From a virus, in IMG/VR virus record IMGVR_UViG_3300030442_000019: a DNA stretch of 54,054 nt. One strand, written 5' to 3'. Every line of letters begins with the position of its first letter. Position 1 is the stretch's first letter. Made by a program: the position numbers and the translations under genes. Positions 4,517-54,054 of the stretch are shown one piece after another. Below the pieces are notes generated by a model, which was not told the DNA's origin, searched no databases, and saw nothing but the letters and a program-made list of their open reading frames with translations.

Positions 4517-4526
4517 CAATATGGTT

Positions 4527-5135: not shown

Positions 5136-5216
5136 GTTGCATATCCTCCTCAACGTCTCTTATTAACCGCTTCGTCTGCGGTAGGGATTCAGGCAGATGA
5201 ACCTCTGCCGGGGTAA

Positions 5217-5309
5217 TCGGGATACACGGAATCGAACCGTGGACATAAGTCTTTTTTTTCAAAGAGATGATGGATTGTGACTTTTGTTCTACCATTGAAC
5301 TATATCCCG
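5217..5309 (-). tRNA. tRNA-like element with an expanded (27-nt) anticodon loop; possible pseudo-tRNA or atypical tRNA
   Basis: Acceptor stem CGGGATA/TATCCCG, D arm GTTC-AATGGTA-GAAC and T arm CACGG-TTCGATT-CCGTG. The anticodon stem AAGTC/GACTT encloses 27 nt instead of 7. Confidence 0.5.
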
Positions 5310-19107: not shown

Positions 19108-19902
19108 TTATAAGTTTGGACTATAATTTGTGATCGTATCCATATGCTCTATATATGCCACACCATTTTTTATCCCAAACGCAAGTATTATTCCACCTTT
19201 TATCTTTATATTCGGTGTCTCTCCGTTTCTTAATGGCAAAAATATACCATCTGCCACTACAAGCATGCTGTACCCTCTGCATTTTAATCCCTTTAAAATA
19301 TCATAAAAGAATTTTATTTGCAGCCCCTCTTCTTTTTCCACAAGATACATTCTGCTAAAAGTATAAGGCTTTTTTACATTATATGTGCAGCCAATAGGAT
19401 ATCCCTTTCCTTTTTGTTCTTTTGGTATGTTCTTCTCGCTTATAGATTTTTCCGTCCAATTCTCCAAGCCATATTTCCTGTATAGCTCTGGTTCTTCAAG
19501 CAAGAAAAACTTTACCACGTCTTTCTTTGTCTTCTTTATATTTCTAATATTATCTTTTATGTATTCCTTATACCAGTTGTATTTTTCCGGGAGTCCCGTT
19601 CTTTCGAAATATTCATCAATTTCAGAATTTTTTAATTTTTCGACGTTCCGACAGAAGAACGACATCCAGTTGTTGCTAAGTATAAGTTTGCTTTTTATCG
19701 GTTTCTGCATGGATACCAATCCCGAATAGTAGTCCATCATCTTGTATTTGCTGTTAAATTCTACTCTTTTCTCATTCCTTATTATTTTTGCATCTTTCCC
19801 GTTTGTGTTCACATAGATGTATATAGCTGGTGCCGGGTAATGCTCCTGTACCGCTCTATCTTCCAAGTTATCAATTCCTATGTATTCTATTGCTTCTCTC
19901 AT
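19108..19902 (-). CDS. AT-rich accessory gene of unknown function
   Basis: Start refined to MREAIEYIG, which has the RBS GAGGT. The region is visibly more AT-rich than its surroundings. Confidence 0.6.
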   Translation of the reverse strand: MREAIEYIGIDNLEDRAVQEHYPAPAIYIYVNTNGKDAKIIRNEKRVEFNSKYKMMDYYSGLVSMQKPIKSKLILSNNWMSFFCRNVEKLKNSEIDEYFERTGLPEKYNWYKEYIKDNIRNIKKTKKDVVKFFLLEEPELYRKYGLENWTEKSISEKNIPKEQKGKGYPIGCTYNVKKPYTFSRMYLVEKEEGLQIKFFYDILKGLKCRGYSMLVVADGIFLPLRNGETPNIKIKGGIILAFGIKNGVAYIEHMDTITNYSPNL

Positions 19903-19912
19903 TTTTCTACCT

Positions 19913-20200
19913 CTACAATAATTCAATTTCTGTAATTCTTACAATTGTATCTAATGGGTTCTCTTTCTTCTCCACCACTTCGAAGCTGTAGTTAATCCAT
20001 ACCGGGCAGTTCGACTCTCCGTCTACTCCACAATCCGATATCTTATAGCTTACTGATCCGGCATCAGTTGGATCATCACCATTTCCATCCCATATATCAT
20101 TAATCTCTACTTCTTCCCCGACTTCCACTTCTGGCAAGTACTCAATTTTGCAATCTCCATTTTGATTAATGTCATAACCTTCTTGTATAATACTATTCAT
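19913..20200 (-). CDS. Acidic small protein, paralog of 20289-20519
   Basis: 95 aa. It shares EVGEE...D.W...FE.V....ENP..T.V.IT.I with the 76-aa ORF. Confidence 0.65.
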   Translation of the reverse strand: MNSIIQEGYDINQNGDCKIEYLPEVEVGEEVEINDIWDGNGDDPTDAGSVSYKISDCGVDGESNCPVWINYSFEVVEKKENPLDTIVRITEIELL

Positions 20201-21687: not shown

Positions 21688-23043
21688 TTAATATATGCTA
21701 AAATGTATGTCTATGTCATCTTCTGTGATAACCACCTTTTCAACACACTCTTTTAGCACCTTGTTTTTCTCGGAATCCGTCAGTGTATCCCACACGTTGG
21801 ACATCTCTTTTATTTTCTCTATTTTTTCTCCCCGTCCAGCTTTCTCCCGGATGTCTTCTGCCTTTAGTTCTTCCTGTAGATTTTTCAGTTTTTTTTCTTC
21901 TGTCTGGATAACATCAAAAAGTGTATCTGTACCGGAACTACCGCTTGCATACAATGTGTATAGGCGTTTCAGTTTTGCTTCGCTTAGTGATATCTCTTTT
22001 TCTATCATCTTCCTGGTGCTTTCGGATTCATTCTCTTTTTCTTCGACATTAACGATGAATCTTTTAAAGCAGTCCTCTACTTCTTTTTCTACCACATCTG
22101 CCCGCACCTTTTTATTCTTGCAAGGGTTCCCTGTCTTAGATATATGCTCTTTTTCCTTGTACTGTGAGTAACATACTATCTTGGTGTACTTTCCCCACTT
22201 TTGCATCCGCATTTTGGTGCCACATTTTCCGCAGTAACACAAACCGGTAAGCATATGCTTGTTGCTTACATAAGCATTTGTGGATCTCTTTTTTATCTCT
22301 TCCTGTACTTCGTAGAATAGTTTTTCGTCTATGATTGGTTCATGCAAGCCTTGGTATGTTTTTCCTTTATATTGTATTTTACCTACATAAGCTATTCGCC
22401 TAATAATGTTCGATACAAGCTTCTCTGAATGCATCCCGAGGATTTTTTGAATCCTATCACACGAATATCCGTCCCGGAACATCTGAAAGATAGCTTTTAC
22501 CTTTTCCGCTTCTTCCGGGATGATATGTAATATCCCATCGTTCCTGTCGTACCTATATCCGTACGGTATCGTACCACCACCCATCCACAGTCCACGCTTT
22601 ACACGCTCCACCATCCCGGCTCTTGTACGCATATAGATAACCTCACGCTCATACTGCCCCATGACCGCATTAACGCCCAGCATCACACGATCCATCGGTG
22701 TCTCATTCCGCAAATCCTCTGTAGCCGATACTACCTCTACATTGTATTTTGGTAAGAGCTTACTCACAAGCGTAAGAGTATCTACAACATCACGGCTCAT
22801 TCTGTCAAGCTTATAGATGTATACTGCCTGTATTTCTCCGGCTTCTGCATCTTCCAGAAGTTTCTGTATGTTCGGTCTTTGGATATTGCTCCCGGAATAT
22901 CCCCCGTCTACATACCATCTGGCTATCTTCACGCCCCTTTTCTTGGCAAGTTCCTTTATCTTGTCTTCTTGGACATCAAGACCATACTTTTCGGCCTGTG
23001 CTTCTGTAGACACTCTCATATAACCTACATTTAATTTTTTCAT
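21688..23043 (-). CDS. int: Large serine recombinase (integrase)
   Basis: The resolvase-type N-terminus is GYMRVSTEAQ...YKLDRMSRD. It also has a recombinase domain, a Cys-rich zinc ribbon and a coiled coil. Start refined to MKKLNVGY. Confidence 0.9.
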   Translation of the reverse strand: MKKLNVGYMRVSTEAQAEKYGLDVQEDKIKELAKKRGVKIARWYVDGGYSGSNIQRPNIQKLLEDAEAGEIQAVYIYKLDRMSRDVVDTLTLVSKLLPKYNVEVVSATEDLRNETPMDRVMLGVNAVMGQYEREVIYMRTRAGMVERVKRGLWMGGGTIPYGYRYDRNDGILHIIPEEAEKVKAIFQMFRDGYSCDRIQKILGMHSEKLVSNIIRRIAYVGKIQYKGKTYQGLHEPIIDEKLFYEVQEEIKKRSTNAYVSNKHMLTGLCYCGKCGTKMRMQKWGKYTKIVCYSQYKEKEHISKTGNPCKNKKVRADVVEKEVEDCFKRFIVNVEEKENESESTRKMIEKEISLSEAKLKRLYTLYASGSSGTDTLFDVIQTEEKKLKNLQEELKAEDIREKAGRGEKIEKIKEMSNVWDTLTDSEKNKVLKECVEKVVITEDDIDIHFSIY

Positions 23044-23106
23044 GTCAATTCTCCTTTCAATTAAAAAAGAATTGACCAAGATTCTATCAAGGTCAATTCT
23101 AAAATA

Positions 23107-27555: not shown

Positions 27556-28464
27556 CTACCCTGTATAATCTTCAAACCGTTCACACGCCATAAATGCGTA
27601 TCTGGAATTTACCCATCTCTGCATTCTTTTCAGCTGATCACGCTTCTTCAATTTGTATTTGTCATAAATCATCACATATGGGGCATATCCTAAATCCCTT
27701 AGTGTGTATATCCGGTCAAGGTCTTGTTCCAATGTTGTGTTAAATCCGCATAAGACATACACCGTCATCTTCCCTCTGTTCCATCCAGTTAACTTTTGAA
27801 ACATCTTAAATTTTGGCACTATATTGTCTTTATCCTGGTATCTATCCCACGCAAAATGTATCTGCTTAATCTTCATCTGCTTGATATATTCCGCTTTTTC
27901 TTTGGTCATAATCCGAATGTCGCAACCTTGCGAAAAATCTATCCAAGCCTTGCTATCAATAAGTTGTTGGCTCAGATTTTCCCAGTCCTTGCAAGCGAAC
28001 ATATTTGGATCCAGCAAAACGATATTCTTCTGACCATTCCAGAATTCAGACAAATCAGCTACCTTACGGCTTTTCTGTCCCTCTTTTTCTTTCACGATGC
28101 AGAAATCGCAACCTCTTGGACATCCTCTTGTCAAGAATCCATATGCCATATTTCTGCATAATTCTGGATACAGGCTGTAATCTGGATAGATGTGTTCAAT
28201 TTTGTCCGGCAATGACTTGCCACCGGATGGATATTCGTATCCTGTACCGCCCTTAATTATTTCTCCAGCACACACTGGATGAGGATAATCCGGTGTAAAG
28301 GTAAATACCTTGCTCATATATACCCTGTCTGGTGGATTTAGCCATGCAGTCAGCGGATCATACCACTCTACTTGATCTCCGTTCTGCTTATGCCATGCCG
28401 ACAGCTTCATAAGTGGCAGATTTGGAAAATTGTGTCCGTCTACGTCAATTAGTGCTATTCTCAT
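27556..28464 (-). CDS. Radical SAM enzyme
   Basis: CxxxCxxC motif in GFLTRGCPRGCDFCIV. The N-terminal region is Rossmann/B12-like. Confidence 0.75.
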   Translation of the reverse strand: MRIALIDVDGHNFPNLPLMKLSAWHKQNGDQVEWYDPLTAWLNPPDRVYMSKVFTFTPDYPHPVCAGEIIKGGTGYEYPSGGKSLPDKIEHIYPDYSLYPELCRNMAYGFLTRGCPRGCDFCIVKEKEGQKSRKVADLSEFWNGQKNIVLLDPNMFACKDWENLSQQLIDSKAWIDFSQGCDIRIMTKEKAEYIKQMKIKQIHFAWDRYQDKDNIVPKFKMFQKLTGWNRGKMTVYVLCGFNTTLEQDLDRIYTLRDLGYAPYVMIYDKYKLKKRDQLKRMQRWVNSRYAFMACERFEDYTG

Positions 28465-29406: not shown

Positions 29407-30534
29407 CTACGCTTTCGTTGAAATTCCGTTAACTTCTACATAATCTACTGGCAGTACCATGCATTTTCTTCCGTCAACTTCCTTGATTTCTAAATTGCTG
29501 ATGGAATCTGCATCGATAGTTATCTTCCCCTCTGGAACCTGGATATTAACCACCTTGTTGTCGCAAATGTTACTTGCCATAACAGGCACATTCCCGATGT
29601 TCTCCCGGTAAGCACCCTCGAACATTTCCATCTTTTCATCCGGTACACTGCTGTTACAGAATATCTTTTTCAGTTCGTTCCTATCAATTTTGTACGGCTC
29701 CGGGTCTTCTGCATGGCGTTCCATCTCTTCGCTAATGCCCTCATAGATGTCTTTCACAATCTTACAGTCTGCATCTTCTCCAAATACATCCCTTAACAAC
29801 TTACCGAATTTATCTTTCTCTTCATCTGCAGATACCACCAAATCAATTCCAAGTAGCTCACGAACCATTTCTTCTTGTACCTCGGCAGACTTCCGGGTGT
29901 AATAGAGTACACTATGTACATCCGTCTGTCTGTCGTTAAATGCCGGGAATAGAAATCCTTTGTCCGGCATATCTACTACCCAATCACGGGTTCTCTCTTC
30001 CATCCGTTCATCTTTCCCATTGTAAGTAAGACCGGCTTTTGAAAGCTTCACTGGGCAGATGCAACAAAGAATGAAATCGTATACTTCCTCAGATGCATCT
30101 TCCAACATTTCTCCGTCCGATGTCTTTCCCGGTACGTCATATACTGCATGGATAAGTATGATGTAGTAATTCTCAGCACAGTCATAAGACGTAAGAATCT
30201 TTTCATAGAATTCGTCCAGTAATGCCGGGTCTCTCAGTTTGCTTTCTCTCAGATTCATTAACAGTTCATGTTCTTCGCCCTCTGGGTCACTGCTCCTACT
30301 TTCTTTCGGCTTGTATTCCAGGTTCAACAAGTTCTTTCCGATTTTCCCAGATAAGGTCTTCTTGAAAATATCAAAATACTTAAATGCCTGTTCTTCCGGC
30401 AGTGAAAGAAACGCTTCTTCTCTTTCCATGCGTTTCTCTTTTTCTCCATCCACGTAGCATCCGGCTATACGGGTGATCGCACAATTCTCCGGTGTGAACT
30501 GTTTTCTGATTTCCAATACTTCTTTTTTATTCAC
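29407..30534 (-). CDS. DUF4317-like protein
   Basis: The N-terminus MNKKEVLEIRKQFTPENCAITRIAGCYVDGEK...FKKTLSGKIGKNLLNLEY matches my memory of that family. GTG start with RBS AGGAGGGA. Confidence 0.55.
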   Translation of the reverse strand: MNKKEVLEIRKQFTPENCAITRIAGCYVDGEKEKRMEREEAFLSLPEEQAFKYFDIFKKTLSGKIGKNLLNLEYKPKESRSSDPEGEEHELLMNLRESKLRDPALLDEFYEKILTSYDCAENYYIILIHAVYDVPGKTSDGEMLEDASEEVYDFILCCICPVKLSKAGLTYNGKDERMEERTRDWVVDMPDKGFLFPAFNDRQTDVHSVLYYTRKSAEVQEEMVRELLGIDLVVSADEEKDKFGKLLRDVFGEDADCKIVKDIYEGISEEMERHAEDPEPYKIDRNELKKIFCNSSVPDEKMEMFEGAYRENIGNVPVMASNICDNKVVNIQVPEGKITIDADSISNLEIKEVDGRKCMVLPVDYVEVNGISTKA

Positions 30535-30653
30535 TTTCTATCCCTCCTAAACCAAAACTTTCGTTTCTTCTTTTCTCGTTTCTCTTTCTGCTTTTTAGAC
30601 CACTCTGCAAGATATTGTTCCTGTTCCTGATCTTCCTGTTCCTGTCGTGTCAC
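30531..30653 (-). CDS. 40-aa micro-ORF (MTRQEQ...) linking RT and the DUF4317-like gene
   Basis: The GTG overlaps the RT stop (TAGTG) and its stop overlaps the next GTG (GTGA). The N-terminus is duplicated at 33557. Confidence 0.35.
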   Translation of the reverse strand: MTRQEQEDQEQEQYLAEWSKKQKEKREKKKRKFWFRRDRK

Positions 30654-30664
30654 TATGTCACCTC
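30635..30664. repeat. 30-bp direct repeat, copy A (28 of 30 identical to 33539-33568)
   Basis: CCTGTTCCTGTCGTGTCACTATGTCACCTC against ...CACAAAGTCACCTC. Confidence 0.85.
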
Positions 30665-31681
30665 TTTCATCAATTCCTCTATATACAGATCCATACTATG
30701 AACCAACTTAATACAATTTCCATGCAATGCATGGTTCTTCCATGAATTATATTTCTCATAGAATTTTTCTTCCGTGAGTTTCCAAGCTTTCACGTCTTTC
30801 ACCAATTTTCGGAATTTCTTTTTGTTCTTCCGCTTATTCTCTCCTGTCAGCTTCCGAATATATTTCCCATCGGCCGTCATATAATGATGGAACCCTAAAT
30901 ATCGCATTCCTTTTCTAAACGGTATGATCTGTGTCTTTCCGTTCAATTCAAGTCCAAGTGTTTTTAGCATTTCTTTGATGCATTCCAAACACCATTTCAA
31001 ATATTCCTTATCTTGATGAATCAAGTAGAAATCGTCCATATATCTTCCATATTCAGTAATTCCAAGCTCGCCGGTTGCCATACAATCTACTGCATGGACC
31101 ATAAGCAGTGCATATACCTGTCCGGCTTGATTGCCAAGTGGTAAACCTGGATTCTTGCTACTATCAATCAGTGTATGATTCAGCCATGTTGTGTACGGGT
31201 CTGGGAAGAAATAATCTACAATATCTTTCAGTATTTCATGGTCAATTTCGTAAAAGAAATGTCTTATATCGCATTTCAATATCCATCCGTCTACGCCATG
31301 TCTCTGATAGAATGATTCCATGTGGTCCCTTAATCCATCTAATGCATACAGTGTTCCTTTTCCTATTTGTCCGGCAGAATTGTATTTTATAAATACATTC
31401 TTCAATTTTGGATGCAGAATGTTGTCACAGAGTATGTGTTGCACTACCTTATCTTTAAATGAACATGATTCAATTACTCTTTGTTTCGGCTCATATATTT
31501 CGAACCGGTTATACGGAGCAACTGTATATGTCTGATTCTCTAACTGCTCTTTTAGGATATTGATTCCGTCTAAAGCGACATTAGAAAATCTTGCAGTGCT
31601 GCTATTAAATTTCTTGCCAGACTTAGCTTTTCGATAAGCGTAATACAGATTCCCATAATCCGTGACAATTTCTCTATCCAT
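30653..31681 (-). CDS. DGR-type reverse transcriptase
   Basis: Motifs YMDDF and LPLGNQAGQ (the DGR form of the IGNxxSQ motif). It sits next to TR and avd. Confidence 0.9.
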   Translation of the reverse strand: MDREIVTDYGNLYYAYRKAKSGKKFNSSTARFSNVALDGINILKEQLENQTYTVAPYNRFEIYEPKQRVIESCSFKDKVVQHILCDNILHPKLKNVFIKYNSAGQIGKGTLYALDGLRDHMESFYQRHGVDGWILKCDIRHFFYEIDHEILKDIVDYFFPDPYTTWLNHTLIDSSKNPGLPLGNQAGQVYALLMVHAVDCMATGELGITEYGRYMDDFYLIHQDKEYLKWCLECIKEMLKTLGLELNGKTQIIPFRKGMRYLGFHHYMTADGKYIRKLTGENKRKNKKKFRKLVKDVKAWKLTEEKFYEKYNSWKNHALHGNCIKLVHSMDLYIEELMKEVT

Positions 31682-31774
31682 TGGTACTCCTTTATATTTA
31701 CCTCTATGAGGACGGTCCGTTTCCTTTTTGTATCTTTCCCGATTTCGGCTTGATGCCTACTCTGACTCCCTGTT

Positions 31775-31848
31775 ATACAGAATGGGCGCACCCCGTTACT
31801 GTTGTTGTAGTTATTGTTGTTGATGTTACCGGACGGAGAAACAACCGC
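31775..31848 (-). repeat. DGR template repeat (TR), non-coding
   Basis: The minus-strand sequence is GGTTGTTTCTCCGTCCGGTAACATCAACAACAATAACTACAACAACAGTAACGGGGTGCGCCC. The core has 19 adenines, mostly in AAC codons. Confidence 0.9.
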
Positions 31849-31874
31849 TTAACGGAAACGAACCTAAAGTGTAT

Positions 31875-32246
31875 TTATCTTTGCCGGTCTTTAGTTCTCC
31901 ATGCAATAGCCATATGTTTTACATCAGATACCAACTTTGACCAATATTCCACGCTTTTTTCACTGATGATATTTAGCTCATAGGACATCTCTATGTAGAA
32001 AAGTAGTTCATCGCAATACGTAATTGCTTTCGTCTGCATTTCAAGTCGATCTCTTTTATAATTCTTGATATCCGTTCTATTCGCTTCAAAGAGCATTTCA
32101 TAGATTTCCATTGACTTATTCTGCATTTTATCAACAAGTGAAAATCTATATTTTTTTGGATATCGGTTGGCATTGCTAGTCACTTTCAATGTATGTGTGG
32201 CCAGTTCCTTCGCCTTTTGAATTACTTTCAGATCATTCTCTGCCAT
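31875..32246 (-). CDS. avd: DGR accessory variability determinant (Avd)
   Basis: 123-aa basic helical protein between the target gene and TR. TAATG overlap with target 2. Confidence 0.8.
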   Translation of the reverse strand: MAENDLKVIQKAKELATHTLKVTSNANRYPKKYRFSLVDKMQNKSMEIYEMLFEANRTDIKNYKRDRLEMQTKAITYCDELLFYIEMSYELNIISEKSVEYWSKLVSDVKHMAIAWRTKDRQR

Positions 32247-32842
32247 TAATCATCATCTTCCTCACAAGATTCAAAGATTGAAGAGGAAAAGATACAAACT
32301 GGGCGCACCCCGCCACTGTAGTAGTAGCGACCGTAGCTGATGCTACCGGACGGAGAAACAACCCGAACAAAGGTGTCATCATTATTACAAGCCGTGCTGT
32401 CTGGTGTAAGTGTCCACCACCATTTACCCCTATTCGGCAGGAACTCTCTATACTTCCGGTATTCATCCACGGAAATAAGCGAAACATAATCTCTGCAAGT
32501 TCCATATTCCGTCTGACCATCTAACGAAAGTAAATTGCGTTCAAACTCGACCAGTGAATCTGCCCCTAATTCACTTTCAATCTTTTTGCGGAGATCAGTG
32601 TTTAACTCATTTCTCAAATCACTGGATTTCCAATCGTTGCAATTATCATCAAACTCTCTGTCTCCTCCGTAAAAATCTTCCGAAATTGCAAAATATCCTT
32701 TTTCAAGCTTGTCCAACACCAGCCACTTAATACCGGCAACCTCAATTGTCTTTCCGATTTCCGGCTGATATTTTTTTCTTAACTGTTCAAAAACTTCATT
32801 AAGATTTTTAAGGTTTTCTCCGAATTCTTTTAACGTCATCAT
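32246..32842 (-). CDS. DGR target protein 2 (DUF6273-like / C-type-lectin-fold C-terminus)
   Basis: 198 aa. The C-terminus WWWTLTPDS...VVSPSGSISYGRYYYSGGVRPVCIF contains VR1. Confidence 0.85.
   Translation of the reverse strand: MMTLKEFGENLKNLNEVFEQLRKKYQPEIGKTIEVAGIKWLVLDKLEKGYFAISEDFYGGDREFDDNCNDWKSSDLRNELNTDLRKKIESELGADSLVEFERNLLSLDGQTEYGTCRDYVSLISVDEYRKYREFLPNRGKWWWTLTPDSTACNNDDTFVRVVSPSGSISYGRYYYSGGVRPVCIFSSSIFESCEEDDD
32292..32363 (-). repeat. DGR variable repeat VR1
   Basis: 11 differences from TR, all at TR adenines. The flanks GGTTGTTTCTCCGTCCGGT and GGGGTGCGCCC are identical. Confidence 0.9.
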
Positions 32843-32845
32843 GTT

Positions 32846-33457
32846 TTACTCCTCCTCAACTTTGGATACAAAGATATTAGATTTTAATATACAAAATGGG
32901 CGCACCCCGAGACCGTCGTTGCAGTTAACGTAGTCGATGCTACCGGACGGAGAAACAACCGCTACTGAACACTTCCATCCTCTTTCTTTCGTACTCCAAG
33001 ATGTGCAAGTCCAGTACCAATCCGGGAGGTCTTTGTTTACAAGCAGATCATTGTATTCACGTGCTTCGTCAAATGTCAGAGGTCTTACTTTTGTCAAGAG
33101 TTTTCCAAATACTTCCTGTCCATCAACTGTTACTAATCCGGCTTCATTTGTACAAATATTTTCTTCTCCGAATTCATCAGAAAACTCATTGAGAATTTCG
33201 CCTTCGCACAGTTCTCTTAATAATGATTTCCTGTATTCCGTACAATCATCATCAAATTTCACATTTTCGCGATATAAGCCTTCTGTAATAACTACAGTGG
33301 AATCTTCTTTCTGTTCCAGTACAATGAATCTTCCGATGCCTGTAGCAAACTTCCCACCAATCGGAATATCTTTCAGCATCACTTTGTTTTTCTGGTCTTC
33401 TTTCTCGATAGCTGCTACTAATTTCTTTGCTAATTCCAATACATTACTTTTGCTCAT
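32846..33457 (-). CDS. DGR target protein 1 (paralog of target 2)
   Basis: 203 aa. The C-terminus WYWTCTSWS...VVSPSGSIDYVNCNDGLGVRPFCIL contains VR2. Confidence 0.85.
   Translation of the reverse strand: MSKSNVLELAKKLVAAIEKEDQKNKVMLKDIPIGGKFATGIGRFIVLEQKEDSTVVITEGLYRENVKFDDDCTEYRKSLLRELCEGEILNEFSDEFGEENICTNEAGLVTVDGQEVFGKLLTKVRPLTFDEAREYNDLLVNKDLPDWYWTCTSWSTKERGWKCSVAVVSPSGSIDYVNCNDGLGVRPFCILKSNIFVSKVEEE
32889..32962 (-). repeat. DGR variable repeat VR2
   Basis: 10 differences from TR, all at TR adenines. Confidence 0.9.
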
Positions 33458-33557
33458 TTTTACTTTCCTCCTGTTTCTTCTGCTTTAAGTATTCAAACGG
33501 ATCCGCATAATGTGACTTCCGTTTAAAATTCTCAATAGCCTGTTCCTGTCGTGTCAC
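33444..33557 (-). CDS. 37-aa micro-ORF (MTRQEQ...), paralog of 30531-30653
   Basis: GTG start 5 nt after GGAGGTG. My own translation is VTRQEQAIENFKRKSHYADPFEYLKQKKQEESKNEQK. Confidence 0.3.
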   Translation of the reverse strand: MTRQEQAIENFKRKSHYADPFEYLKQKKQEESKNEQK

Positions 33558-33568
33558 AAAGTCACCTC
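33539..33568. repeat. 30-bp direct repeat, copy B
   Basis: Matches 30635-30664 at 28 of 30 positions. Confidence 0.85.
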
Positions 33569-33714
33569 CGAACATCGTTCTTTTTGCTACGTCTTACTAT
33601 TCTCCGCTTTTTCTTTGTTTCTCCAGGTAATTCAGCTTTAGCACTCGCCCAACTACAGTCTGCCAAAGGACAGATAAAACAGTTTGGATAAGTGCATCCA
33701 TCCGGTTTTGCCAT
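33562..33714 (-). CDS. 50-aa Cys-containing basic protein
   Basis: My own translation starts MAKPDGCTYPNCFICPLADCSWASAKAELPGETKKKRRIV.... RBS AGGAGGAA. Confidence 0.45.
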   Translation of the reverse strand: MAKPDGCTYPNCFICPLADCSWASAKAELPGETKKKRRIVRRSKKNDVRR

Positions 33715-33724
33715 ATTCTTCCTC

Positions 33725-34447
33725 CTATGTAATAAGCTTTCTTTCTAAATCATTCATGTCATAGTTCCGTCCATCGAAATTATTGAATCCTTTTTTCTCC
33801 TGTCCGCTGTCTTCATATTGTCCCTCAGACACTTTTGTGAAGTTGTTCGGTAACACAAACCAGTCGAATGTTATCTTCCAGTTTTTCACTTTCCCTTGTA
33901 AGTACTTGCTTTTCTTCACGTTATCCACAGCTTGCAAGACATTTTCCAAACCGTTGCTTTCTAACCTCGCTTGCAAGTTCTGGTATCTCTTAGAAGTCTT
34001 CTCTATCTTCTTTACGGGTTTTATCCCGTAGTTTTCCAAATCGTTCCAGGCTTTTATGACAGCTTCAACAGATCCATTGTCTCTTTCCGGCTTTTCTTCC
34101 TGTCTGGTCGGCTTATCTTTTTTTTCATTCTTCTGTTCGGTCTGGTATCTTGCGTAGTTATTCACCGTGTATACGGTATATCGGTTTGTGGTTTTGCATG
34201 TAACCTCACCTGTTTTTCTAAGATGTGAAAGTGCTGTCCTTAATTCGCTCTCAGACAGCCCTGTTTCTTTCGAAAGAACGGATATCGAAGAGACAAATGA
34301 TCCTCTTTTAATCTCTTCTCCTCTGAAGCTTGCATCTTTCCAGTTGGCTTTTAATAACATGTGTAAGAATAACCGACACGTCTTTATATCTGGATACCAG
34401 TCCCATTCCAGTATTTTTCTGCTAAGTTTTATGTAATTCTCGCTCAC
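33725..34447 (-). CDS. Phage replisome organizer / DnaD-like replication protein
   Basis: The N-terminus YIKLSRKILEWDWY...RLFLHMLLKANW is typical of replisome organizers. Confidence 0.75.
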   Translation of the reverse strand: MSENYIKLSRKILEWDWYPDIKTCRLFLHMLLKANWKDASFRGEEIKRGSFVSSISVLSKETGLSESELRTALSHLRKTGEVTCKTTNRYTVYTVNNYARYQTEQKNEKKDKPTRQEEKPERDNGSVEAVIKAWNDLENYGIKPVKKIEKTSKRYQNLQARLESNGLENVLQAVDNVKKSKYLQGKVKNWKITFDWFVLPNNFTKVSEGQYEDSGQEKKGFNNFDGRNYDMNDLERKLIT

Positions 34448-36108: not shown

Positions 36109-36783
36109 TTACAAGCTGAACCCCGCTTTCACTTCTTTCTTGTTGTCAAAAATCCATTTATACTGGATTACGGTCAACTCTTCTATCTTTTTGATTTGAT
36201 ATCCGGCAAGAAGTTTGTTCTCGTCAATTCCTTCTTTTTCGAACATCTTTCTAAGCGAATTGATATGATACTGATTAACAAAAGTATCTTGTGTAGCCTG
36301 TTCTTTCTTTCCACCGTTCTTTTGGTCGGCTCCCGTCTGCTTTTTATATTCATCTGTATCCGGGTCCCTCACATCATCCAAGAGGAACAGTGCATTCATA
36401 GCGTATTTTCTTGCATAGCTTGATGATGATCCCGTAACCTGTGATTCATCCATCTTCGGCTTGCTCTCTGGCTCTCTCGCATATCCCGTAGTAGATATTT
36501 CCTCTCCGTTTTCGCAATCGATGAAAGTTGCTACTGACTTCACGTATACTCTCCCGGCTATTTCTACAACTTCATCTCTCAGTAAAAGTGATGAATTGTA
36601 TTCTCTGGCGTATTTTTTGAATTCGTTCAGAATACTTTCAGCGCTCCGATAGTCATAGCCACCGTAATTGCTGTGCTTGTCTTTCGGGACATTCATTTTC
36701 GTCTGAATCTCAGAAAGTTTTTCCCTTATGCCAAGTTTGCACTTATCCTGTTCTGTCTTCTGCTCTTTCTTTTCTTCTGCCAT
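36109..36783 (-). CDS. erf: ERF-family single-strand annealing protein
   Basis: Motifs YGGYDYRSAESILNEF and GSSSSYARKYAMNALFLLDD. Confidence 0.75.
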   Translation of the reverse strand: MAEEKKEQKTEQDKCKLGIREKLSEIQTKMNVPKDKHSNYGGYDYRSAESILNEFKKYAREYNSSLLLRDEVVEIAGRVYVKSVATFIDCENGEEISTTGYAREPESKPKMDESQVTGSSSSYARKYAMNALFLLDDVRDPDTDEYKKQTGADQKNGGKKEQATQDTFVNQYHINSLRKMFEKEGIDENKLLAGYQIKKIEELTVIQYKWIFDNKKEVKAGFSL

Positions 36784-44393: not shown

Positions 44394-45383
44394 TTATTTT
44401 ACAACGCCGGATAAGAGCCAGTAGGTTGTGACAAGTCCTACTTTTCTATCCGGTGTAAGTCCTCTGTTCCTCTGGAATACTTCTACGCACTTTCCGAGAT
44501 AATCCGTCCATCCCTCATTGTAAGACAGCTTCGTAAAGCCATATACGTCTCTGAGGGTACGTCTAAGCCATCTGATAGCCGTGATACAGTTGTGCGTCTG
44601 CCCTGCCCATAAGATATGCGTTTTAGCAAAATTCTGTGAGCCGACACCGAATTTGTCATCAACAGACAGTGCGTTGGTATCAAACCCTTTGTTCATGGCT
44701 TTCTGCCATTCTCCAACACGGGAATTATTGAGATAATACCGACTGTCACCTTTCCAAGATTCATCTACCGGTTTAGGTGCCGGTGCTACAGTCGGTTTCT
44801 GTACAGGCTTTGCAGTACCACCAAGATTCTTATACACATAGTTCACATCCACATAACCTGGAATGCCTGGAATAGAACCCTTTGACGTGTACTGCCACAT
44901 GTCGATTCCGTCTACTCCGGCAGATTTAGAGCCGTAAGATGCAATCCACAGAGAATACCCCCATGTCTGACCGATATAGTTCTTGTACCAAGATGTAGAT
45001 GCATAGATTCCGGCTTTGTAGCCATGTGACACCATTGCGTCACAGAATGCTTTTGCATTGGCTTTTGCAACGCCTTGTGTTCCCGGCTGTTCGCTGTCGA
45101 AATATACAGGCCATGCCGGAGAATGTCCTTTTAGAAGTCTTAATGCGTGGTTAATTTCTCCACGTACCGCACCTGTAGTCTTTGCGTAAGAATACAGATA
45201 TACACCGTAAGGGATGCCAAGACGCTCACATTCAGATACATTTCTCAGCCATTTTTTATCATCCTGTCCGGTCTGATCTTGTCCATATCCGCATCTAAGG
45301 ATAGCACCTACAATGCCGGATGCTTTTACTTTCGCCCAGTCGATGTTCCTGTTATGTTCAGAAACATCGACTATCCTATTCAA
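44394..45383 (-). CDS. Endolysin: GH25 muramidase plus two PG_binding_1-like repeats
   Basis: Motifs VDVSEHNRNIDWAKVKASGI and IDMWQYTS.G.IPGI.GYVDVN. The C-terminal repeats resemble PG-binding repeats. Confidence 0.85.
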   Translation of the reverse strand: MNRIVDVSEHNRNIDWAKVKASGIVGAILRCGYGQDQTGQDDKKWLRNVSECERLGIPYGVYLYSYAKTTGAVRGEINHALRLLKGHSPAWPVYFDSEQPGTQGVAKANAKAFCDAMVSHGYKAGIYASTSWYKNYIGQTWGYSLWIASYGSKSAGVDGIDMWQYTSKGSIPGIPGYVDVNYVYKNLGGTAKPVQKPTVAPAPKPVDESWKGDSRYYLNNSRVGEWQKAMNKGFDTNALSVDDKFGVGSQNFAKTHILWAGQTHNCITAIRWLRRTLRDVYGFTKLSYNEGWTDYLGKCVEVFQRNRGLTPDRKVGLVTTYWLLSGVVK

Positions 45384-48232: not shown

Positions 48233-50506
48233 TTAAAATATCGTACCGCTTGCTGTTCTTCCAGCGACCAATTTCCCGTTTTTGTAATCTAAGTAACTTC
48301 CGTCTGAGAATACTGCACGTCCAGTTTTTGTTTGTCTTCCTCCGGTTATAAGCTTGTCTGTATTAATGCTAATTGAATTGCCCCATATCGCGGTAGTTCC
48401 ATTATTTTTAAGAATTACAGAAGAATGTCCACTACCGCCATATGCATACATACTCAGTCCTTCTGAACCATCGCTTGCATCTTTTACATAGCTTACTATT
48501 CCGACCAGTGTACCTTTGGCACCATATATTTCAACGAGTCCATTATTTATCCTAATGGCATATTTGTCACTCGGATCATTTGAGTAATATCCGTTTACCC
48601 CTAATGTTCCGACAACTTTTCCACTCGCATTTTCGATAGCGCAATGCCCGTTTGTGTTGTTGTAACCACCAAGCGTCAGAGTTCCAGAATGTATCCAGTC
48701 ACAGTTAATACCTACAGCGGAAAGTACATTAACTACTGCATTGCCATTAGAATCCAACCCGGCGTTCCATGTCTTACCACCATCTGTAGACACTGCAAAT
48801 GCATCACCAACCATTTTCCAGATAATGTTCGAATCTTCCAACCGTTCTTTGTTATGGAGATAAAATATAACTGATTTATCTTCTTTGATTTCTTCGGTCT
48901 TAAAAAATCCCATTCCCTGTGTCATTAAGGCTGTAAGGGACTGAACGGCTTCATCATATTTACTGATTTTTTTTTCGGTAATTTCCGAAGATTTTTGAAT
49001 AGCTTTGGTTTCTGCGCTTACATATTTACTACTGTTTCTCACAGAATTTTCAGCCGAGCATTTAAGTTGAGTAAATCCAAGGAAGTTAAATGTAATGTCT
49101 GTAAGAATCGTCCTGTTCGTCTTTCCGGCACGATCAATCACATAGGCAAGATCCATAAACTCTGCCAAAGGATAAGATAAATGTTCACCAGAAAAATTCA
49201 TAAATGTTAATCCTACAAGCTTTGCCCCCACTGTATTTACGAGAAGATTTTTATCTTTAATAAGTGAATTTTCTATTGACAAAATGTACCCATCAGTGCC
49301 GTAAGTATATGTGTTTTCATTATCCGTTGTTTGCACGCCTGTAATCTTTATGTTTTCAACTCCGGTTGTTAACCCGATCTTCCACTGTGTTAAAAAGTGG
49401 AAATTATCAGCCAGCTCAAATGTTCCATCATCGGCATTGTTTCCACTTGCGTAGTAAGTAGTGGCATCGGAAAGAATATATCCGCTTGCCTCTTCCGTAT
49501 CTACCGAATGAACGCCTAATGTACGTCCGTCTCTAAGCCGGAATCCATCATGTTGCTTTGATATTAAGTGATAAGGATTTCTCTGTTTGCGTTCTACCGA
49601 ACGATACATAATCCCGTAAGAATCATCCGTTAAAAGTTCTAATCCATTGTCAAAATAACCACCGTCCATGTTGGAACCGCTTGTGTACAATTCTTTGTTC
49701 CAGTCAAGATCATCATAAAAAAATTCATTAATATCATCGCCAAAACTTCCACCAGACATATCGGAATATGTCACATACTTTTCCGTGATGACATCTGTCT
49801 CAAATTGACCGCCGTCATAGTTTTGCCTTGGATCATCGAACCACCCACCATCAAGATCGGTCATTCCATCAAAAAGTGTCATGTCGTAATCTGTAATCTG
49901 TAAATGGTTGTCCGCATTCATCCATGCATTTCCGCAAGCGATCATGGCTATTAATCCAACAACCTGTCTGTGAGTAGTGTTTGTCGGTGCTTCTTTTACG
50001 GTTATATCTTCTCCGTTAAAATGCACTGTGTCTAACTGTACTCCGCACGTTCTGCAAGAATCTATCAATATTTCAGACAGTTTGAGGGGATATTTTAAAT
50101 GTGTCGTGTAATCACGATCAAGCTTATATGCATCATCGTAAGCAGAAAAGCTTACGGTATCCCCATAGCTTTCCGGGTCAATTACGGTATAAGTGCCACT
50201 TTTTATAGTCAGATCACCTATATCCGTGCTAATTGACTTATACAATGTTATCTTTGCGCCGAGAAAGCTATGAACTCTATATCTGTCATCTGCGTTGTAC
50301 AGTTTTACTGTAATTTTTCTGGACACAACATTACCGAGTGGCAAGCTTTGTGTACCAGCTCCATCAACAATGTTGTTGCCAGATATTAAAAATTCAGATC
50401 GGCCAAGATTTAGCACTGTGCCATCCAAGAAAGTAACCCTTGCAGATGGATACCAGTCACTACGTCCGTATATAGCTTTCTTATATGCATTGCTAATGTG
50501 TATCAT
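48233..50506 (-). CDS. Tail tip / prophage tail endopeptidase-like protein (Tal)
   Basis: 757 aa, directly after the Dit-position gene. Confidence 0.7.
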   Translation of the reverse strand: MIHISNAYKKAIYGRSDWYPSARVTFLDGTVLNLGRSEFLISGNNIVDGAGTQSLPLGNVVSRKITVKLYNADDRYRVHSFLGAKITLYKSISTDIGDLTIKSGTYTVIDPESYGDTVSFSAYDDAYKLDRDYTTHLKYPLKLSEILIDSCRTCGVQLDTVHFNGEDITVKEAPTNTTHRQVVGLIAMIACGNAWMNADNHLQITDYDMTLFDGMTDLDGGWFDDPRQNYDGGQFETDVITEKYVTYSDMSGGSFGDDINEFFYDDLDWNKELYTSGSNMDGGYFDNGLELLTDDSYGIMYRSVERKQRNPYHLISKQHDGFRLRDGRTLGVHSVDTEEASGYILSDATTYYASGNNADDGTFELADNFHFLTQWKIGLTTGVENIKITGVQTTDNENTYTYGTDGYILSIENSLIKDKNLLVNTVGAKLVGLTFMNFSGEHLSYPLAEFMDLAYVIDRAGKTNRTILTDITFNFLGFTQLKCSAENSVRNSSKYVSAETKAIQKSSEITEKKISKYDEAVQSLTALMTQGMGFFKTEEIKEDKSVIFYLHNKERLEDSNIIWKMVGDAFAVSTDGGKTWNAGLDSNGNAVVNVLSAVGINCDWIHSGTLTLGGYNNTNGHCAIENASGKVVGTLGVNGYYSNDPSDKYAIRINNGLVEIYGAKGTLVGIVSYVKDASDGSEGLSMYAYGGSGHSSVILKNNGTTAIWGNSISINTDKLITGGRQTKTGRAVFSDGSYLDYKNGKLVAGRTASGTIF

Positions 50507-50882: not shown

Positions 50883-53639
50883 CTACCTCCCGAGTTCGAA
50901 TACATTCTGTCCATTTGACATCTGCATCTCTTTTGCTGTATCAATAAGCTGTTCAAGTACCGTTCTGCTGTCCAGATTTACCACAAGTTTTATCATTCCT
51001 GTACCTTTACCGCTTTCTTCACTTACGATTTTCCTCAACAGATTTTCCGGCATCTCTAAGTTGTTTCCTTTTGTCTGGTCACCAAGTACTGCCAAGAACG
51101 GATTTCCGGCCGGAATAACTGCCCCTTGTGCAAGATATGGAATTCTGGTGTAATTTGCATGGGAAAGATTAATTCCTTTACCGCCGATACCTGGAACCCA
51201 ATCCGGTACTTTAATGTGATTCAGTCCGTCTACCAACCCGTTAATTGCATTAATAATTGCTCGATTCAATCCGTTAAAAAGGGCAATAACCATATTTACA
51301 GGTGCTTTAAAAATTGAGTAGATTAAGTTAGCAGCTCCACGGAGTATGTTTAGTATTCCTTTTAGCGCCATATCTACATTCCCCGTAAATACTCCTTTTA
51401 AAAATGTGACAAACCCAGAGCATATCTGCTTAATGCTGTTAAAAATCCCTTTAAAGCTGTTAAGAAAAACTTCCACTACATCTCCAAATACTCCGAATTG
51501 AGCGTGCCAGTCAGTGGCAAATACTCCTTTTATCCAGTCCATAAGTTTCGACATTGCAGCTTTAAGCTGATCCCAGTGAGTAATTATTAATACAATAGCT
51601 GCAACAGCTAACGCAATGGCAATAGGTATTACATTTGAAGCAACTGCAAATCTATCGAAAGCCGCAACGATCATAGAAATTGCTCCAGATAATCCCCCGG
51701 CACCAGTGAATACGCCTATAAGACTTGTAATGGCACTTCTTATTCCAAGTACAAGAGGTGATATCTTCGATGATACAAAGGCTCCAAGCAGTGCAGCTCC
51801 AATGGCATCTATAATCCATTGATGCTCTCCGAGAAAATCAAACAAATCCGCAAGTAGATTAATAAGGAACGGAAGACCGCTCTCTATCAGCCATGTAAGC
51901 ATCGGTAATATAATGTTCGTATACAATCTTTCTAAGAAACTTCCAATAGCTTCTATCAGCGGTGACATAGATTCAAACAAATTCTTAATCGAATTAAGTA
52001 ACGGGTAAAAGTTCAATGATCCCGCCCACTGAGCCGTATCCCACACAAGACGATTGATGATATCAAGCACCTTTTGGAAAGCATCTGCTATAGCCTGTAT
52101 AATGGCCGTTCCTACGGCGTTTTTATTCCAAGCTATATCTAATTGCCTTGCGATGTTTCCGATCGTTGTAAGCAGTCCCTGTGCGATCTGTAACATGGTA
52201 GACAGTATCTGTGTGCCTGTACCATTCGTCCAGACTTCCAACATACTACTGCCGACACTCTTTGCCAGTGCTCCAAGCTCCGACAATGCATACTTAGCAG
52301 CATCAATTGTGTTCTTTCCCTCACGTTCCCACGCTTCTTTAAATGGTTGGAATATCTGCCCCAGTACATCCTTGATTTTTTCAAAAATCGGCGGTGCATC
52401 TATTGGAACTTCTTCAAACATTTTGCTGGTCGGTGTTCCGTTTGCACCGGATCCAGACGGTGTTGTGTCGGTATCCTTATTTGTCGTATACCGATTAATT
52501 TCATCCAATGGTGACAGGTAGTCTTTAGCTGCTTTTGTGGCTTTCTTCGTAGACTTGGCGGTCTTGTCCAGACTGGCAGCATAATCTTTTTGCACTGCCA
52601 ATGCCTTTGTGTACGTCTTATTCCCGGCAAGGTAACTGAAAAACATTCCTACGTAAGTTATGGCTGTGCTGATAAGGTCAATGAATCGCGACAGTATCGG
52701 TGTCACAACTGTCAGAATCGGACTGAAAGCTGTAGCAAATGCATTTTGCAATCTTATAAGGCTTCCCCACAAAGTAGATATATTTGCGTTTGTGGTTTTG
52801 GAGTATTGAGCGAGATTATTGAATCCACCTATTATTCCTTGTGTAAGAGCACTAAGAATTCGAAAAACACCGCTAAACAATAGAGACATCGTAAGCATTC
52901 TTCCGATACTCATTCTTGCTGATCCGGCTGATTTACTAGCGTCTTTAAATGACCTACTCAGTTTTGAATTGGAATTTGCAGTTTTGTTATTCGCACTGTT
53001 TACTCCAAAAAGTTTTTCTTTCAAGGAAACCAAACCAGTACCGTAACTTGCAAGTTTACTTTTAATGCCAGAATACGATGTGTTTAATCGGTTCTGCATA
53101 TCAGCAAGTCTTCTTTCTGCACTCGCAAGTCTTTCCATGTCTGCCTGCGCTTCTTTGGTGTTCACACCAGTCGAAAAGGCTTTTCCAGAAACTTCCAGGT
53201 CAATAAGCTCCGACCGTGCGTATTTAATAGTGTTCGCAAGTTCATCTATGTCATACTGCATTTTTTTATAAGTCGAAGTGTTCTTTTTCCCTCCGTTTGC
53301 TATAAAACGTTCCTGTGATGACGTAAGCTGATTGAGTTTTGCTTCTGCTTTTGAAATTTGGTCGGATATTTCCTTGTATTCCGTGGTTGGGATGCGCTGA
53401 TTTGCATAGGATGCTACCTTTTGCCGTAACGATTCTACCTTTTGTTCTTGTGCGCTGTATTCGTTATTCAGTTTTGCAAAAGCATCTATTTGCTTGTTGA
53501 TGGCGTTTTTTGCAGACACTCCCAAATTATTTACCCTATCTGCTGCTCTTCGCAATCCAGCTTCAATTTCTTGTGAACCCGCCTTTATGCCATCAGTTCT
53601 GATTTTTGTGTTAATAACAATACTTCCATCTTCTGTCAT
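50883..53639 (-). CDS. Tape measure protein
   Basis: 918 aa with a coiled-coil N-terminus and hydrophobic central segments. Confidence 0.9.
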   Translation of the reverse strand: MTEDGSIVINTKIRTDGIKAGSQEIEAGLRRAADRVNNLGVSAKNAINKQIDAFAKLNNEYSAQEQKVESLRQKVASYANQRIPTTEYKEISDQISKAEAKLNQLTSSQERFIANGGKKNTSTYKKMQYDIDELANTIKYARSELIDLEVSGKAFSTGVNTKEAQADMERLASAERRLADMQNRLNTSYSGIKSKLASYGTGLVSLKEKLFGVNSANNKTANSNSKLSRSFKDASKSAGSARMSIGRMLTMSLLFSGVFRILSALTQGIIGGFNNLAQYSKTTNANISTLWGSLIRLQNAFATAFSPILTVVTPILSRFIDLISTAITYVGMFFSYLAGNKTYTKALAVQKDYAASLDKTAKSTKKATKAAKDYLSPLDEINRYTTNKDTDTTPSGSGANGTPTSKMFEEVPIDAPPIFEKIKDVLGQIFQPFKEAWEREGKNTIDAAKYALSELGALAKSVGSSMLEVWTNGTGTQILSTMLQIAQGLLTTIGNIARQLDIAWNKNAVGTAIIQAIADAFQKVLDIINRLVWDTAQWAGSLNFYPLLNSIKNLFESMSPLIEAIGSFLERLYTNIILPMLTWLIESGLPFLINLLADLFDFLGEHQWIIDAIGAALLGAFVSSKISPLVLGIRSAITSLIGVFTGAGGLSGAISMIVAAFDRFAVASNVIPIAIALAVAAIVLIITHWDQLKAAMSKLMDWIKGVFATDWHAQFGVFGDVVEVFLNSFKGIFNSIKQICSGFVTFLKGVFTGNVDMALKGILNILRGAANLIYSIFKAPVNMVIALFNGLNRAIINAINGLVDGLNHIKVPDWVPGIGGKGINLSHANYTRIPYLAQGAVIPAGNPFLAVLGDQTKGNNLEMPENLLRKIVSEESGKGTGMIKLVVNLDSRTVLEQLIDTAKEMQMSNGQNVFELGR

Positions 53640-53705: not shown

Positions 53706-54054
53706 ATTTACGAGTCCGAATACTCTTCTTAATTCTTCTTTTTCTTCTTCGCTTCGCTCTGGTGTCGCTTTAAGGTCAACAAGTTCTTTGTTGCTAGAAT
53801 AGAATTCTTTTTCCCAACTATCCAATTTCTTCCCTTTCGAGACTTTTTCACGAATGTTAGTGATAGTGCTGAACAGAGATTCTCCAATCTCCATAAAAAG
53901 TCCCATGAATGTCCACCAATGTAAGTACTCTTTCTCACGAATATCCTCATGTGCCACTTTATTAATGGCCGGAATCAGAATCTTTGCATCTTTTTTCCAA
54001 TCCATAAGTTGCGGTTTTTTCTTATCTCCCTTAAATCCGCAGTCGATAAACTCT
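53700..54054 (-). CDS. Tail assembly chaperone, Phage_Gp15-like (3' part of the gene that starts at 335)
   Basis: Same reading frame as 1-335 across the junction. The track ORF 53700-54005 is the portion from an internal Met. Confidence 0.75.
   Translation of the reverse strand, partial: EFIDCGFKGDKKKPQLMDWKKDAKILIPAINKVAHEDIREKEYLHWWTFMGLFMEIGESLFSTITNIREKVSKGKKLDSWEKEFYSSNKELVDLKATPERSEEEKEELRRVFGLVNN
53956..54054. repeat. Terminal overlap copy (identical to 1-99)
   Basis: Direct comparison of the window ends. Confidence 0.9.

Follow-up and report, generated by a model that had tools for sequence, protein, structure and literature searches.

The diversity-generating retroelement (DGR) of Bordetella phage BPP-1 consists of a target gene, mtd, followed by avd, a template repeat (TR) of 134 nt and the reverse transcriptase (RT) gene brt, and the variable repeat (VR) at the C-terminus of its target departs from the TR in an adenine-specific manner. 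In a reference set, multi-target DGRs account for 13% of the elements, and the smallest targets on record consist of a bare C-type-lectin fold (PMC5758913). For the gut phages nd4 and nd12, stand-alone targets of 234 and 294 aa have been described in which a DUF6273 domain has short flanking helices and bears the VR hairpin at its C-terminus (PMC10743442); with them belong the "small targets" of Lelie and CP11, two phages of Faecalibacterium (PMC11792537), and the second target of Toutatisvirus, gp24 (10.1101/2024.10.15.618418). For Quimbyvirus, a non-structural phage DGR target within an island of conflict genes has been proposed (PMC8008677). Here, we describe a DGR with two small target genes in the IMG/VR virus record IMGVR_UViG_3300030442_000019 (54,054 nt, the whole of which we call the window). 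All coordinates are positions within the window, and the cassette is read on the minus strand (30400-33700). We regard it as rather probable that this is a canonical, active DGR that diversifies accessory ligand-binding modules of a temperate siphovirus.

The window DGR resembles that of BPP-1 in its parts and their order (target, avd, TR, and RT), in the adenine-specific differences between TR and VR, in having the VR at the C-terminus of a C-type-lectin-type fold, and in the GC-rich block at the 3' end of the repeat; moreover, the BPP-1 RT (bRT) is the closest solved relative of the window RT (E 2.1e-29). It differs in having two tandem targets rather than one, each of about 200 aa and without the β-prism and β-sandwich domains of Mtd, in its shorter TR (66-74 nt), in the location of the cassette in the early region instead of beside tail-fibre genes, and in the RT motif LGNQAGQ, where bRT has IGSLTSQ. 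A closer likeness is found to the small targets of nd4/nd12, Lelie/CP11, and Toutatisvirus, with which the window shares a homologous single DUF6273 domain and one TR serving two VRs. By tblastn, the VR1-bearing target (target B) is 27-33% identical to homologues in nd4, nd12, Lelie, FP_Toutatis, and FP_Brigit (31-33% for nd4/nd12 and about 30% for Lelie/Toutatis). In nd4, Lelie, and Toutatis, the small-target genes also lie among early/replication genes: between an amidase and SSB/DnaC in nd4, and between methyltransferases/prohibitin and the replication initiator plus antiterminator Q in Toutatis. In those phages, however, the other target is a large Ig-domain protein (tentaclin or Hoc-like) or is 17 kb away, whereas both window targets are small tandem paralogues, with no large or structural target. 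The host families differ as well, Lachnospiraceae for the window and Oscillospiraceae for those phages. Among GenBank phages, a megablast search with the cassette gave no match, and only protein-level relatives were found. Nothing about the DGR machinery is out of the ordinary, and targets of this type are known already; what is new is that a further gut Firmicutes phage has a DGR whose targets are small DUF6273 proteins.

On the minus strand, the cassette runs from target A (carrying VR2) through target B (carrying VR1), avd, and the TR to the RT gene (table 1). The TR block (31848-31783) reads GCGGTTGTTTCTCCGTCCGGT-AAC ATC AAC AAC AAT AAC TAC AAC AAC AGT AAC-GGGGTGCGCCCA; beyond 31783 the homology is weaker and reaches 31775. 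Over this 66-nt block, VR1 shows 11 mismatches to the TR and VR2 shows 10, and 21 of 21 fall on TR adenines. Given 20 A per 66-nt block, the chance of A-only mismatches is ~1e-11, that is (20/66)^21, and a chance repeat arrangement was rejected on this probability. The flanks GGTTGTTTCTCCGTCCGGT and GGGGTGCGCCC are devoid of adenine and are the same in TR, VR1, and VR2, the GC block GGGGTGCGCCC lying at 31794-31784 in the TR. The first non-adenine differences occur directly 3' of GGGGTGCGCCCA (T>G and C>T in VR1; C>T in VR2), where the TR continues with ATTCTGTAT, VR1 with AGTTTGTAT, and VR2 with ATTTTGTAT. Because the copies diverge there at non-adenine sites, the 3' limit of information transfer is placed after GGGGTGCGCCCA. 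Measured from the GC block, the TR and VR flanks part 1-4 nt downstream, with the VRs continuing as A/G-T/G-TTTGTAT. In the spacer 3' of the TR, no significant RNA or DNA structure was predicted (z = -0.87); by analogy with BPP-1, this spacer is presumably part of the TR-containing RNA and would serve priming. Since TR and VRs are homologous over no more than 64-74 nt, this DGR family would escape pipelines that demand a TR/VR alignment of 90 nt or longer, a criterion quoted in PMC11792537.

The RT carries YMDD at residue 214 and LGNQAGQ at residue 182. When compared with solved structures (phmmer vs PDB), it matches 8ub7_A best, with 106 bits and the E-value given above; by tblastn, this structure is the brt product of BPP-1. 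The next matches are a group II maturase (E 7.5e-7, 31.8 bits) and a Cas6-RT-Cas1 protein (E 6e-4, 22 bits). The RT also matches phrog_1423 (2e-96) and Pfam RVT_1. NCBIfam, which holds no DGR-RT model, returned only sub-threshold group II and Drt matches; the best of them, to a group II RT/maturase, scores 93 bits against a cut-off of 300 bits and does not speak for a group II intron. With bRT well ahead of the group II maturase (106 vs 31.8 bits), descent of the RT from a retron or group II element was rejected. Assigned by phmmer and profile matches, the DGR class of the RT, and its position closest to bRT among solved RTs, are supported by these comparisons. The motif LGNQAGQ (RT residues 176-187, ~31120-31155 on the minus strand) aligns to IGSLTSQ of bRT, with glycine in place of the bRT serine; an RT with LGNQAGQ belongs here to a clearly active element nonetheless. 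The 123-aa protein matches phrog_3206, "Avd protein of DGR" (7.4e-25), and its best matches in NCBIfam (DivGenRetAVD, 9e-13) and Pfam (bAvd, 5.6e-7) both remain under the curated cut-offs; among solved structures, no sequence match to it was found. The preliminary description, made from the DNA alone, had proposed that the DGR is complete, with a single TR and with VRs in each of two tandem paralogues, and this observation is correct: on realignment, its TR/VR statements were reproduced, with every mismatch on a TR adenine and the adenine-free flanks identical in the three copies, while its assignments of a DGR-type RT and of a basic Avd are borne out by the matches above (and, for Avd, by a pI of 9.2). 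Only the order of the targets has to be amended, since the VR1 gene had been put first; the VR2 gene precedes it on the minus strand, and it is the VR1 gene that adjoins avd.

The DGR is evidently active, as shown by three independent lines of comparative evidence. The database homologues of the two targets number 4150 and 3909. Entropy, computed on the best ~120 homologues of each target (119 and 120, 84-96% identical), is highest by far at the codons with TR adenines (residues 167-177 of target B and 173-183 of target A). Among these homologues, AAY codons take 10-13 different residues and the ATC, TAC, and AGT codons 3-5, in line with the single adenine of each; outside the VR, some moderate variability is seen at a few positions. 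We further compared 50 related loci (47 IMG/VR contigs and three prophages in metagenome-assembled genomes, MAGs; L numbers denote individual loci). The canonical TR sequence is unchanged in 37 of 53 TR copies, and wherever a TR is present the VR copies depart from it at A sites only. Two near-identical phages, L009 and L011, have VR1 in common and differ in VR2. Non-adenine variants of the repeat are shared by TR and VRs within one genome, as seen for GGCGTTCGCCC vs GGGGTGCGCCC and for TCG vs TCT in the 5' flank, and in L010 and L013 new bases fixed in the TR turn up in both VRs. As TR variants recur in the VRs of the same genome, this is direct evidence for a flow from TR to VR. With 11 rewritten codons per target (eight AAY and three with a single A), the theoretical repertoire is ~15^8 x 4^3, or roughly 1.6e11 peptides per target. 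That the repeats are instead a decayed or fortuitous arrangement, no longer diversifying, we consider extremely improbable. Some relatives have indeed lost Avd/RT (L021, L024, and L057) and others have adenine-depleted TRs (L012 and L015), but the window TR keeps the full canonical set of 20 adenines, its RT and Avd open reading frames (ORFs) are intact, near-identical phages differ at the VRs only (VR2 in L009 vs L011), and the A-only mismatches have the small chance probability given above.

Loss of TR adenines was observed in 7 of ~30 related contigs (L012/L103, L015/L101, L010, L013/L083, L032/L079, L007/L077/L049, and L025). The eroded TRs contain 41 substitutions, all at A sites, and the most eroded copies retain 6/19 and 3/19 adenines; the only non-A change in any TR copy is the lineage variant AAC>AAT (L038, L039, and L041). 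The TR of the window itself (31783-31827) is intact. In L010 and L013 the DGR stayed active after erosion, since both VRs carry the new bases of the TR, whereas the VRs of L012 and L015 are incompatible with the eroded TR, so that the element there is to all effects dead. The pattern suggests occasional mutagenic self-homing into the TR, perhaps enabled by the 1-2 nt difference between TR and VRs 3' of the GC block.

A mechanism consistent with the above would proceed as follows. The TR-containing transcript would be reverse-transcribed by an RT-Avd complex, with misincorporation opposite adenines, and the resulting cDNA would then replace VR1 or VR2; the transferred tract would extend from GGTTGTTTC through the GC block GGGGTGCGCCC plus the following A. 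The cDNA-transfer step is drawn from the sequence pattern and the BPP-1 analogy. The rewritten codons would sit in the C-terminal β-hairpin of two stand-alone DUF6273/C-type-lectin-like proteins, and an N-terminal heptad helix of ~20 residues may possibly make these targets oligomeric.

The two targets, of 198 aa (B) and 203 aa (A), are ~30% identical to each other. Both fall in phrog_9958 (B 1.8e-50, A 6.5e-30), which has no annotated function. Against Pfam DUF6273 (PF19789, cut-off 23.5 bits), target B scores above the threshold (26.6) and target A below it (21.3); many close homologues of target A have a precomputed PF19789 match, and both targets align lengthwise with about 120 PF19789 proteins. 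NCBIfam contains no model for them. The targets are acidic (pI 4.6-4.7), and no signal peptide, lipobox, or hydrophobic segment was found in either (maximum Kyte-Doolittle 19-residue mean <1.0). AlphaFold2 models, built from an alignment of 133 sequences, reached a predicted local distance difference test score (pLDDT) of 85 and a predicted TM-score (pTM) of 0.79 for target B, and 91 and 0.81 for target A. Each model consists of an N-terminal helix (~residues 3-24) and one globular α/β domain, and the VR codons, residues 167-177 of 198 in target B and 173-183 of 203 in target A, are placed in the C-terminal β-hairpin region (strands E168-171 and E176-178 in target B). On direct reading, the helix of target B presents the a/d heptad positions L4, F7, L11, L14, F18, L21, and Y25, compatible with an oligomeric neck-plus-lectin arrangement. 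The sole significant Foldseek match in the PDB is 9qa6, the Thomasclavelia ramosa IgA peptidase (B 3.9e-6, A 3.1e-5), whose N-terminal domain is DUF6273 (PMC12402451). Next for target A come the C-terminal domain of Legionella Lcl (probability 0.97) and many C-type lectin-like domains (E 0.1-0.8). In BFVD, matches are to viral DUF6273 proteins (1e-8 to 1e-4) and a DUF1566 protein (3.4e-4). Thus, on the predicted models, the assignment to a DUF6273/C-type-lectin-like fold holds, while the likeness to classical lectins is remote.

The family to which the targets belong is large (3131 clusters at 50% identity, E <= 1e-3). Most of its best 150 clusters are stand-alone proteins of ~200 aa; it includes a 6979-aa protein with 19 repeats. 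In the N-terminal extensions of the longer members, Pfam found DUF6273 alone, and some extensions look like gene-calling read-through; they give no clue to localisation. Two known classes of target were rejected. The tentaclins (PMC10743442) do not correspond to single-domain proteins of 198 and 203 aa without an Ig domain, and a weak match of the targets to phrog_10993, "Hoc-like", spans the lectin-like C-terminus only. A Mtd-type receptor-binding protein was discarded since in the models just the N-terminal helix precedes the lectin-like domain; among the best-listed Foldseek matches of either target, no Mtd structure appears.

The gene neighbourhood is variable. We fetched 63 related IMG/VR loci with the DnaD-like gene as anchor and, in relatives with a DnaD 88-98% identical, compared the interval from the small ORF to the 198-aa gene. 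This hotspot may hold the full cassette, with DUF4317 present or not, both targets without Avd/RT (L021/L074 and L024/L070), target A alone (L057, L061, and L093), or diverged non-DGR versions of the targets (L086/L089, L072, and L085); in L095/L096, L055, L062, and L090 it contains no target, and target-less hotspots sometimes hold an unrelated protein with a variable number of GASSATG(N/Y/K) repeats. The targets are thus dispensable, accessory and not core, given that in close relatives the RT, one target, or the entire set is missing. In the window and in all close relatives, the cassette is bracketed by the two copies of a 30-nt direct repeat (2904 nt apart), which contains a ribosome-binding site and the initial codons of a small ORF (VTRQEQ...); in L095, where the site is empty, there is a single small ORF of VTRQEQ type. 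From this sequence configuration, the cassette looks like a module exchanged by recombination at a conserved junction.

As to what the targets do, we lean towards diversified accessory binding modules. More tentatively, and with a confidence just short of even, we place their action outside the cell, where they would be adhesins, attached to the virion as optional parts or set free by lysis, that bind variable ligands on host or gut surfaces. In favour of an extracellular role, larger proteins of the same fold among the BFVD matches are annotated as receptor-binding, tail-fibre, or lectin-type, and the fold occurs in the secreted IgA peptidase and the 6979-aa protein with 19 repeats. Similarly, the proposals made for the homologous tgt2 and small targets favour an adhesin role outside the cell (PMC10743442). 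A number of observations weigh against the picture of a canonical DGR serving lectin-like extracellular modules. The targets have no recognisable virion-anchoring domain. Their genes lie inside an early operon without a promoter or terminator signal of their own, and homologues occupy early/non-structural positions in about five phage lineages. In published work on the family, no proteomic or expression data were found; specifically, no virion proteomics were found in the literature for phages carrying a small DUF6273 target. None of the Foldseek matches to a classical C-type lectin reaches significance by itself (E ~0.1-3), the difference between IMH and IMH* (IMH, initiation of mutagenic homing) is merely 1-2 nt, and the hairpins 3' of both VRs are weak.

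Several of these observations would also fit an "intrabody" model, in which early-expressed cytoplasmic binders neutralise variable host defence or sensor proteins, or proteins of superinfecting phages in a lysogen; we judge this model unlikely. Within the early minus-strand operon, the cassette comes straight after Erf/NinB/RusA/DnaD, at a variable hotspot of accessory genes, and it is dispensable. Early genes also surround the small DUF6273 homologues of nd4, Lelie, Toutatis, the L116 prophage, and SPbeta-like elements; L116, of a distant prophage lineage, has two such genes followed by bAvd and RT, between MazG and HNH/portal, and the SPbeta-like elements have a lone copy. The acidic targets lack a virion-docking domain, and the second target of Quimbyvirus provides a precedent for the idea (PMC8008677). 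By description, Quimbyvirus has two VRs and one target outside the structural module among conflict-type genes, for which the same non-structural-binder hypothesis was raised; unlike the window, this phage of Bacteroidetes has a frameshifted RT and retains a structural target. A conceptual analogue of an intracellular diversified binder exists in the bacterial STAND/NLR-like sensors with DGR C-type-lectin domains (PMC10907252), yet these, likened by fold class only, are large multidomain proteins with NTPase and effector domains, whereas the window targets are single-domain proteins of 200 aa. On the other hand, the targets have no effector or partner domain, PADLOC gave no defence-family match for the targets, DUF4317, the 198-aa protein (p198), or the radical-SAM gene, and every family member with an inferred role is an extracellular binding module. 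Gene position by itself is weak evidence. The preliminary description had noted that the targets lack a signal peptide and transmembrane segment and took them to be cytoplasmic; the first part agrees with our search for hydrophobic segments, but the location finds no support in it, because virion proteins lack these signals too and their absence does not separate the two. With that absence uninformative, gene position and dispensability are what the intracellular-binder idea is left with. Taken as a specific claim, that the targets are not virion parts but "intrabodies" tracking host defence sensors or proteins of competing phages, it appears somewhat more doubtful still.

A third explanation, that the prophage expresses the targets for the benefit of its lysogen, to be released by vesicles or subpopulation lysis as variable adhesins or lectins of the bacterial host, seems quite improbable. 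DGR-targeted DUF6273 tentaclins of Mushu-like prophages have been reported in a bacterial secretome without phage particles (10.64898/2026.05.08.723808, preprint), and the window genes do reside in an accessory hotspot. Nonetheless, the targets possess neither signal peptide nor lipobox, and their genes have no detected promoter of their own and are co-oriented with the lytic early operon, on the strand opposite the repressor genes. Action outside the cell, as virion-attached or lysis-released adhesins, remains the reading we tentatively prefer.

The genome context bears out part of what had been said of the targets. An exact 99-nt terminal overlap (1-99 = 53956-54054) indicates that the window is a circular, complete phage genome of ~53,955 bp, and it follows from this circularity that the genes at 0.3-2 kb and the tail module at 44-54 kb form one continuous stretch. 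The genome is that of a temperate siphovirus of ~54 kb infecting Lachnospiraceae. Its relatives are prophages in Dorea and Mediterraneibacter MAGs, with no cultured lysogen identified, and the phage family is abundant, with thousands of variants in public metagenomes. The gene map, obtained from PHROG annotation, confirms the preliminary description in that the cassette belongs to the early/replication region and is well away from the tail genes. The C-type-lectin-like DUF6273 fold, also proposed there, agrees with the AlphaFold2 models, in which the VR falls in a C-terminal hairpin, and with the Foldseek matches. Calling the position and nature of the targets unusual, in contrast, was an overstatement, as stand-alone DUF6273 targets of 200-300 aa are published (PMC10743442; PMC11792537; 10.1101/2024.10.15.618418) and their homologues are early-encoded too. 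As a positional fact, the non-structural location is supported, though it is not unique and had been noted before. The cassette is not delimited by any promoter or terminator signal, and promoter-like sites are fewer than in shuffled sequence (26-40.5 kb).

Some further features of the genome were recorded. The DUF4317 gene is variably present among relatives. The large serine recombinase gene is found midway along the train of minus-strand genes, with the accessory/early genes on one side and TerS on the other, and is apart from the repressors at 41-43 kb. In the interval between serine recombinase and TerS, a 272-aa ORF (19108-19926, minus strand) matches PADLOC Cas8b, the type I-B large subunit, in two stretches (E 1.2e-13) and has no Pfam or PHROG match; it could be a Cas8b-derived fragment or a spurious match. 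A putative tRNA of 93 nt (5217-5309, minus strand; Rfam 52.6 bits), absent from the ARAGORN output, adjoins ORF 4521-5216 on the plus strand, the sole sizeable plus-strand ORF in the minus-strand structural module.

Table 1. Features of the DGR cassette and of its genome setting, with positions in the window
Feature	Position	Strand	Basis or remark
Target gene A, VR2-bearing, 203 aa	32846..33457	-	ORF
VR2, 10 A-site mismatches to TR	32889..32962	-	Alignment of three copies
Target gene B, VR1-bearing, 198 aa	32246..32842	-	ORF; paralogue of target A
VR1, 11 A-site mismatches to TR	32300..32363	-	Alignment of three copies
avd, 123 aa, pI 9.2	31875..32246	-	Family matches
TR	31775..31848	-	20 adenines between 31827 and 31783
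Spacer, TR to RT start codon	31682..31774	-	By position
DGR reverse transcriptase, 342 aa, YMDD and LGNQAGQ	30653..31681	-	phmmer, PHROG, Pfam
30-nt direct repeat, upstream copy	33539..33568		28/30 identical
30-nt direct repeat, downstream copy, overlaps RT stop codon	30635..30664		28/30 identical
Small DNA hairpin 3' of VR1, candidate homing-enhancing structure	32258..32288	-	-7.6 kcal/mol, z = -2.9
Small DNA hairpin CTTTG-TATC-CAAAG 3' of VR2, tentative	32860..32873	-	z = -2.2
cI-like repressors	41.0-42.7 kb	+	PHROG map
Erf	36109-36783	-	Early operon
NinB, RusA, in early operon after Erf		-	PHROG map
DnaD-like loader	33725-34447	-	Early operon; small ORF next, then DGR cassette 33457-30653
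DUF4317 protein, full-length, directly 3' of RT	29407-30534	-	Pfam 2e-136
198-aa protein, past DUF4317		-	PHROG map
Radical-SAM protein, conserved in phages	27556-28464	-	phrog_9298, 5e-114
Large serine recombinase	21688-23079	-	phrog_95 integrase, 8e-112
TerS, TerL, portal, head genes, tail-completion protein	1401-1919 (tail-completion protein)		PHROG map
Tape measure	50883-53639		Across origin; PHROG map
Tail protein	48233-50506		PHROG map
Endolysin	44394-45383		PHROG map

Phage DGR targets are usually read as receptor-binding proteins; here both are small, dispensable, and early-encoded, as in several unrelated gut phage lineages. If the "intrabody" model were true, the family of small stand-alone DUF6273 proteins (>3000 clusters at 50% identity, recurrent in early-gene hotspots) would represent an adaptive layer of counter-defence or defence in gut phages. 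An abundant phage family, present as prophage in Dorea/Mediterraneibacter MAGs, would offer a practical system for localising DUF6273 proteins to the virion, the gut lumen, or the cell interior. Finally, the related genomes form a natural series of DGR decay, from templates with eroded adenines through RT loss to target loss, which bears on how such elements are maintained.

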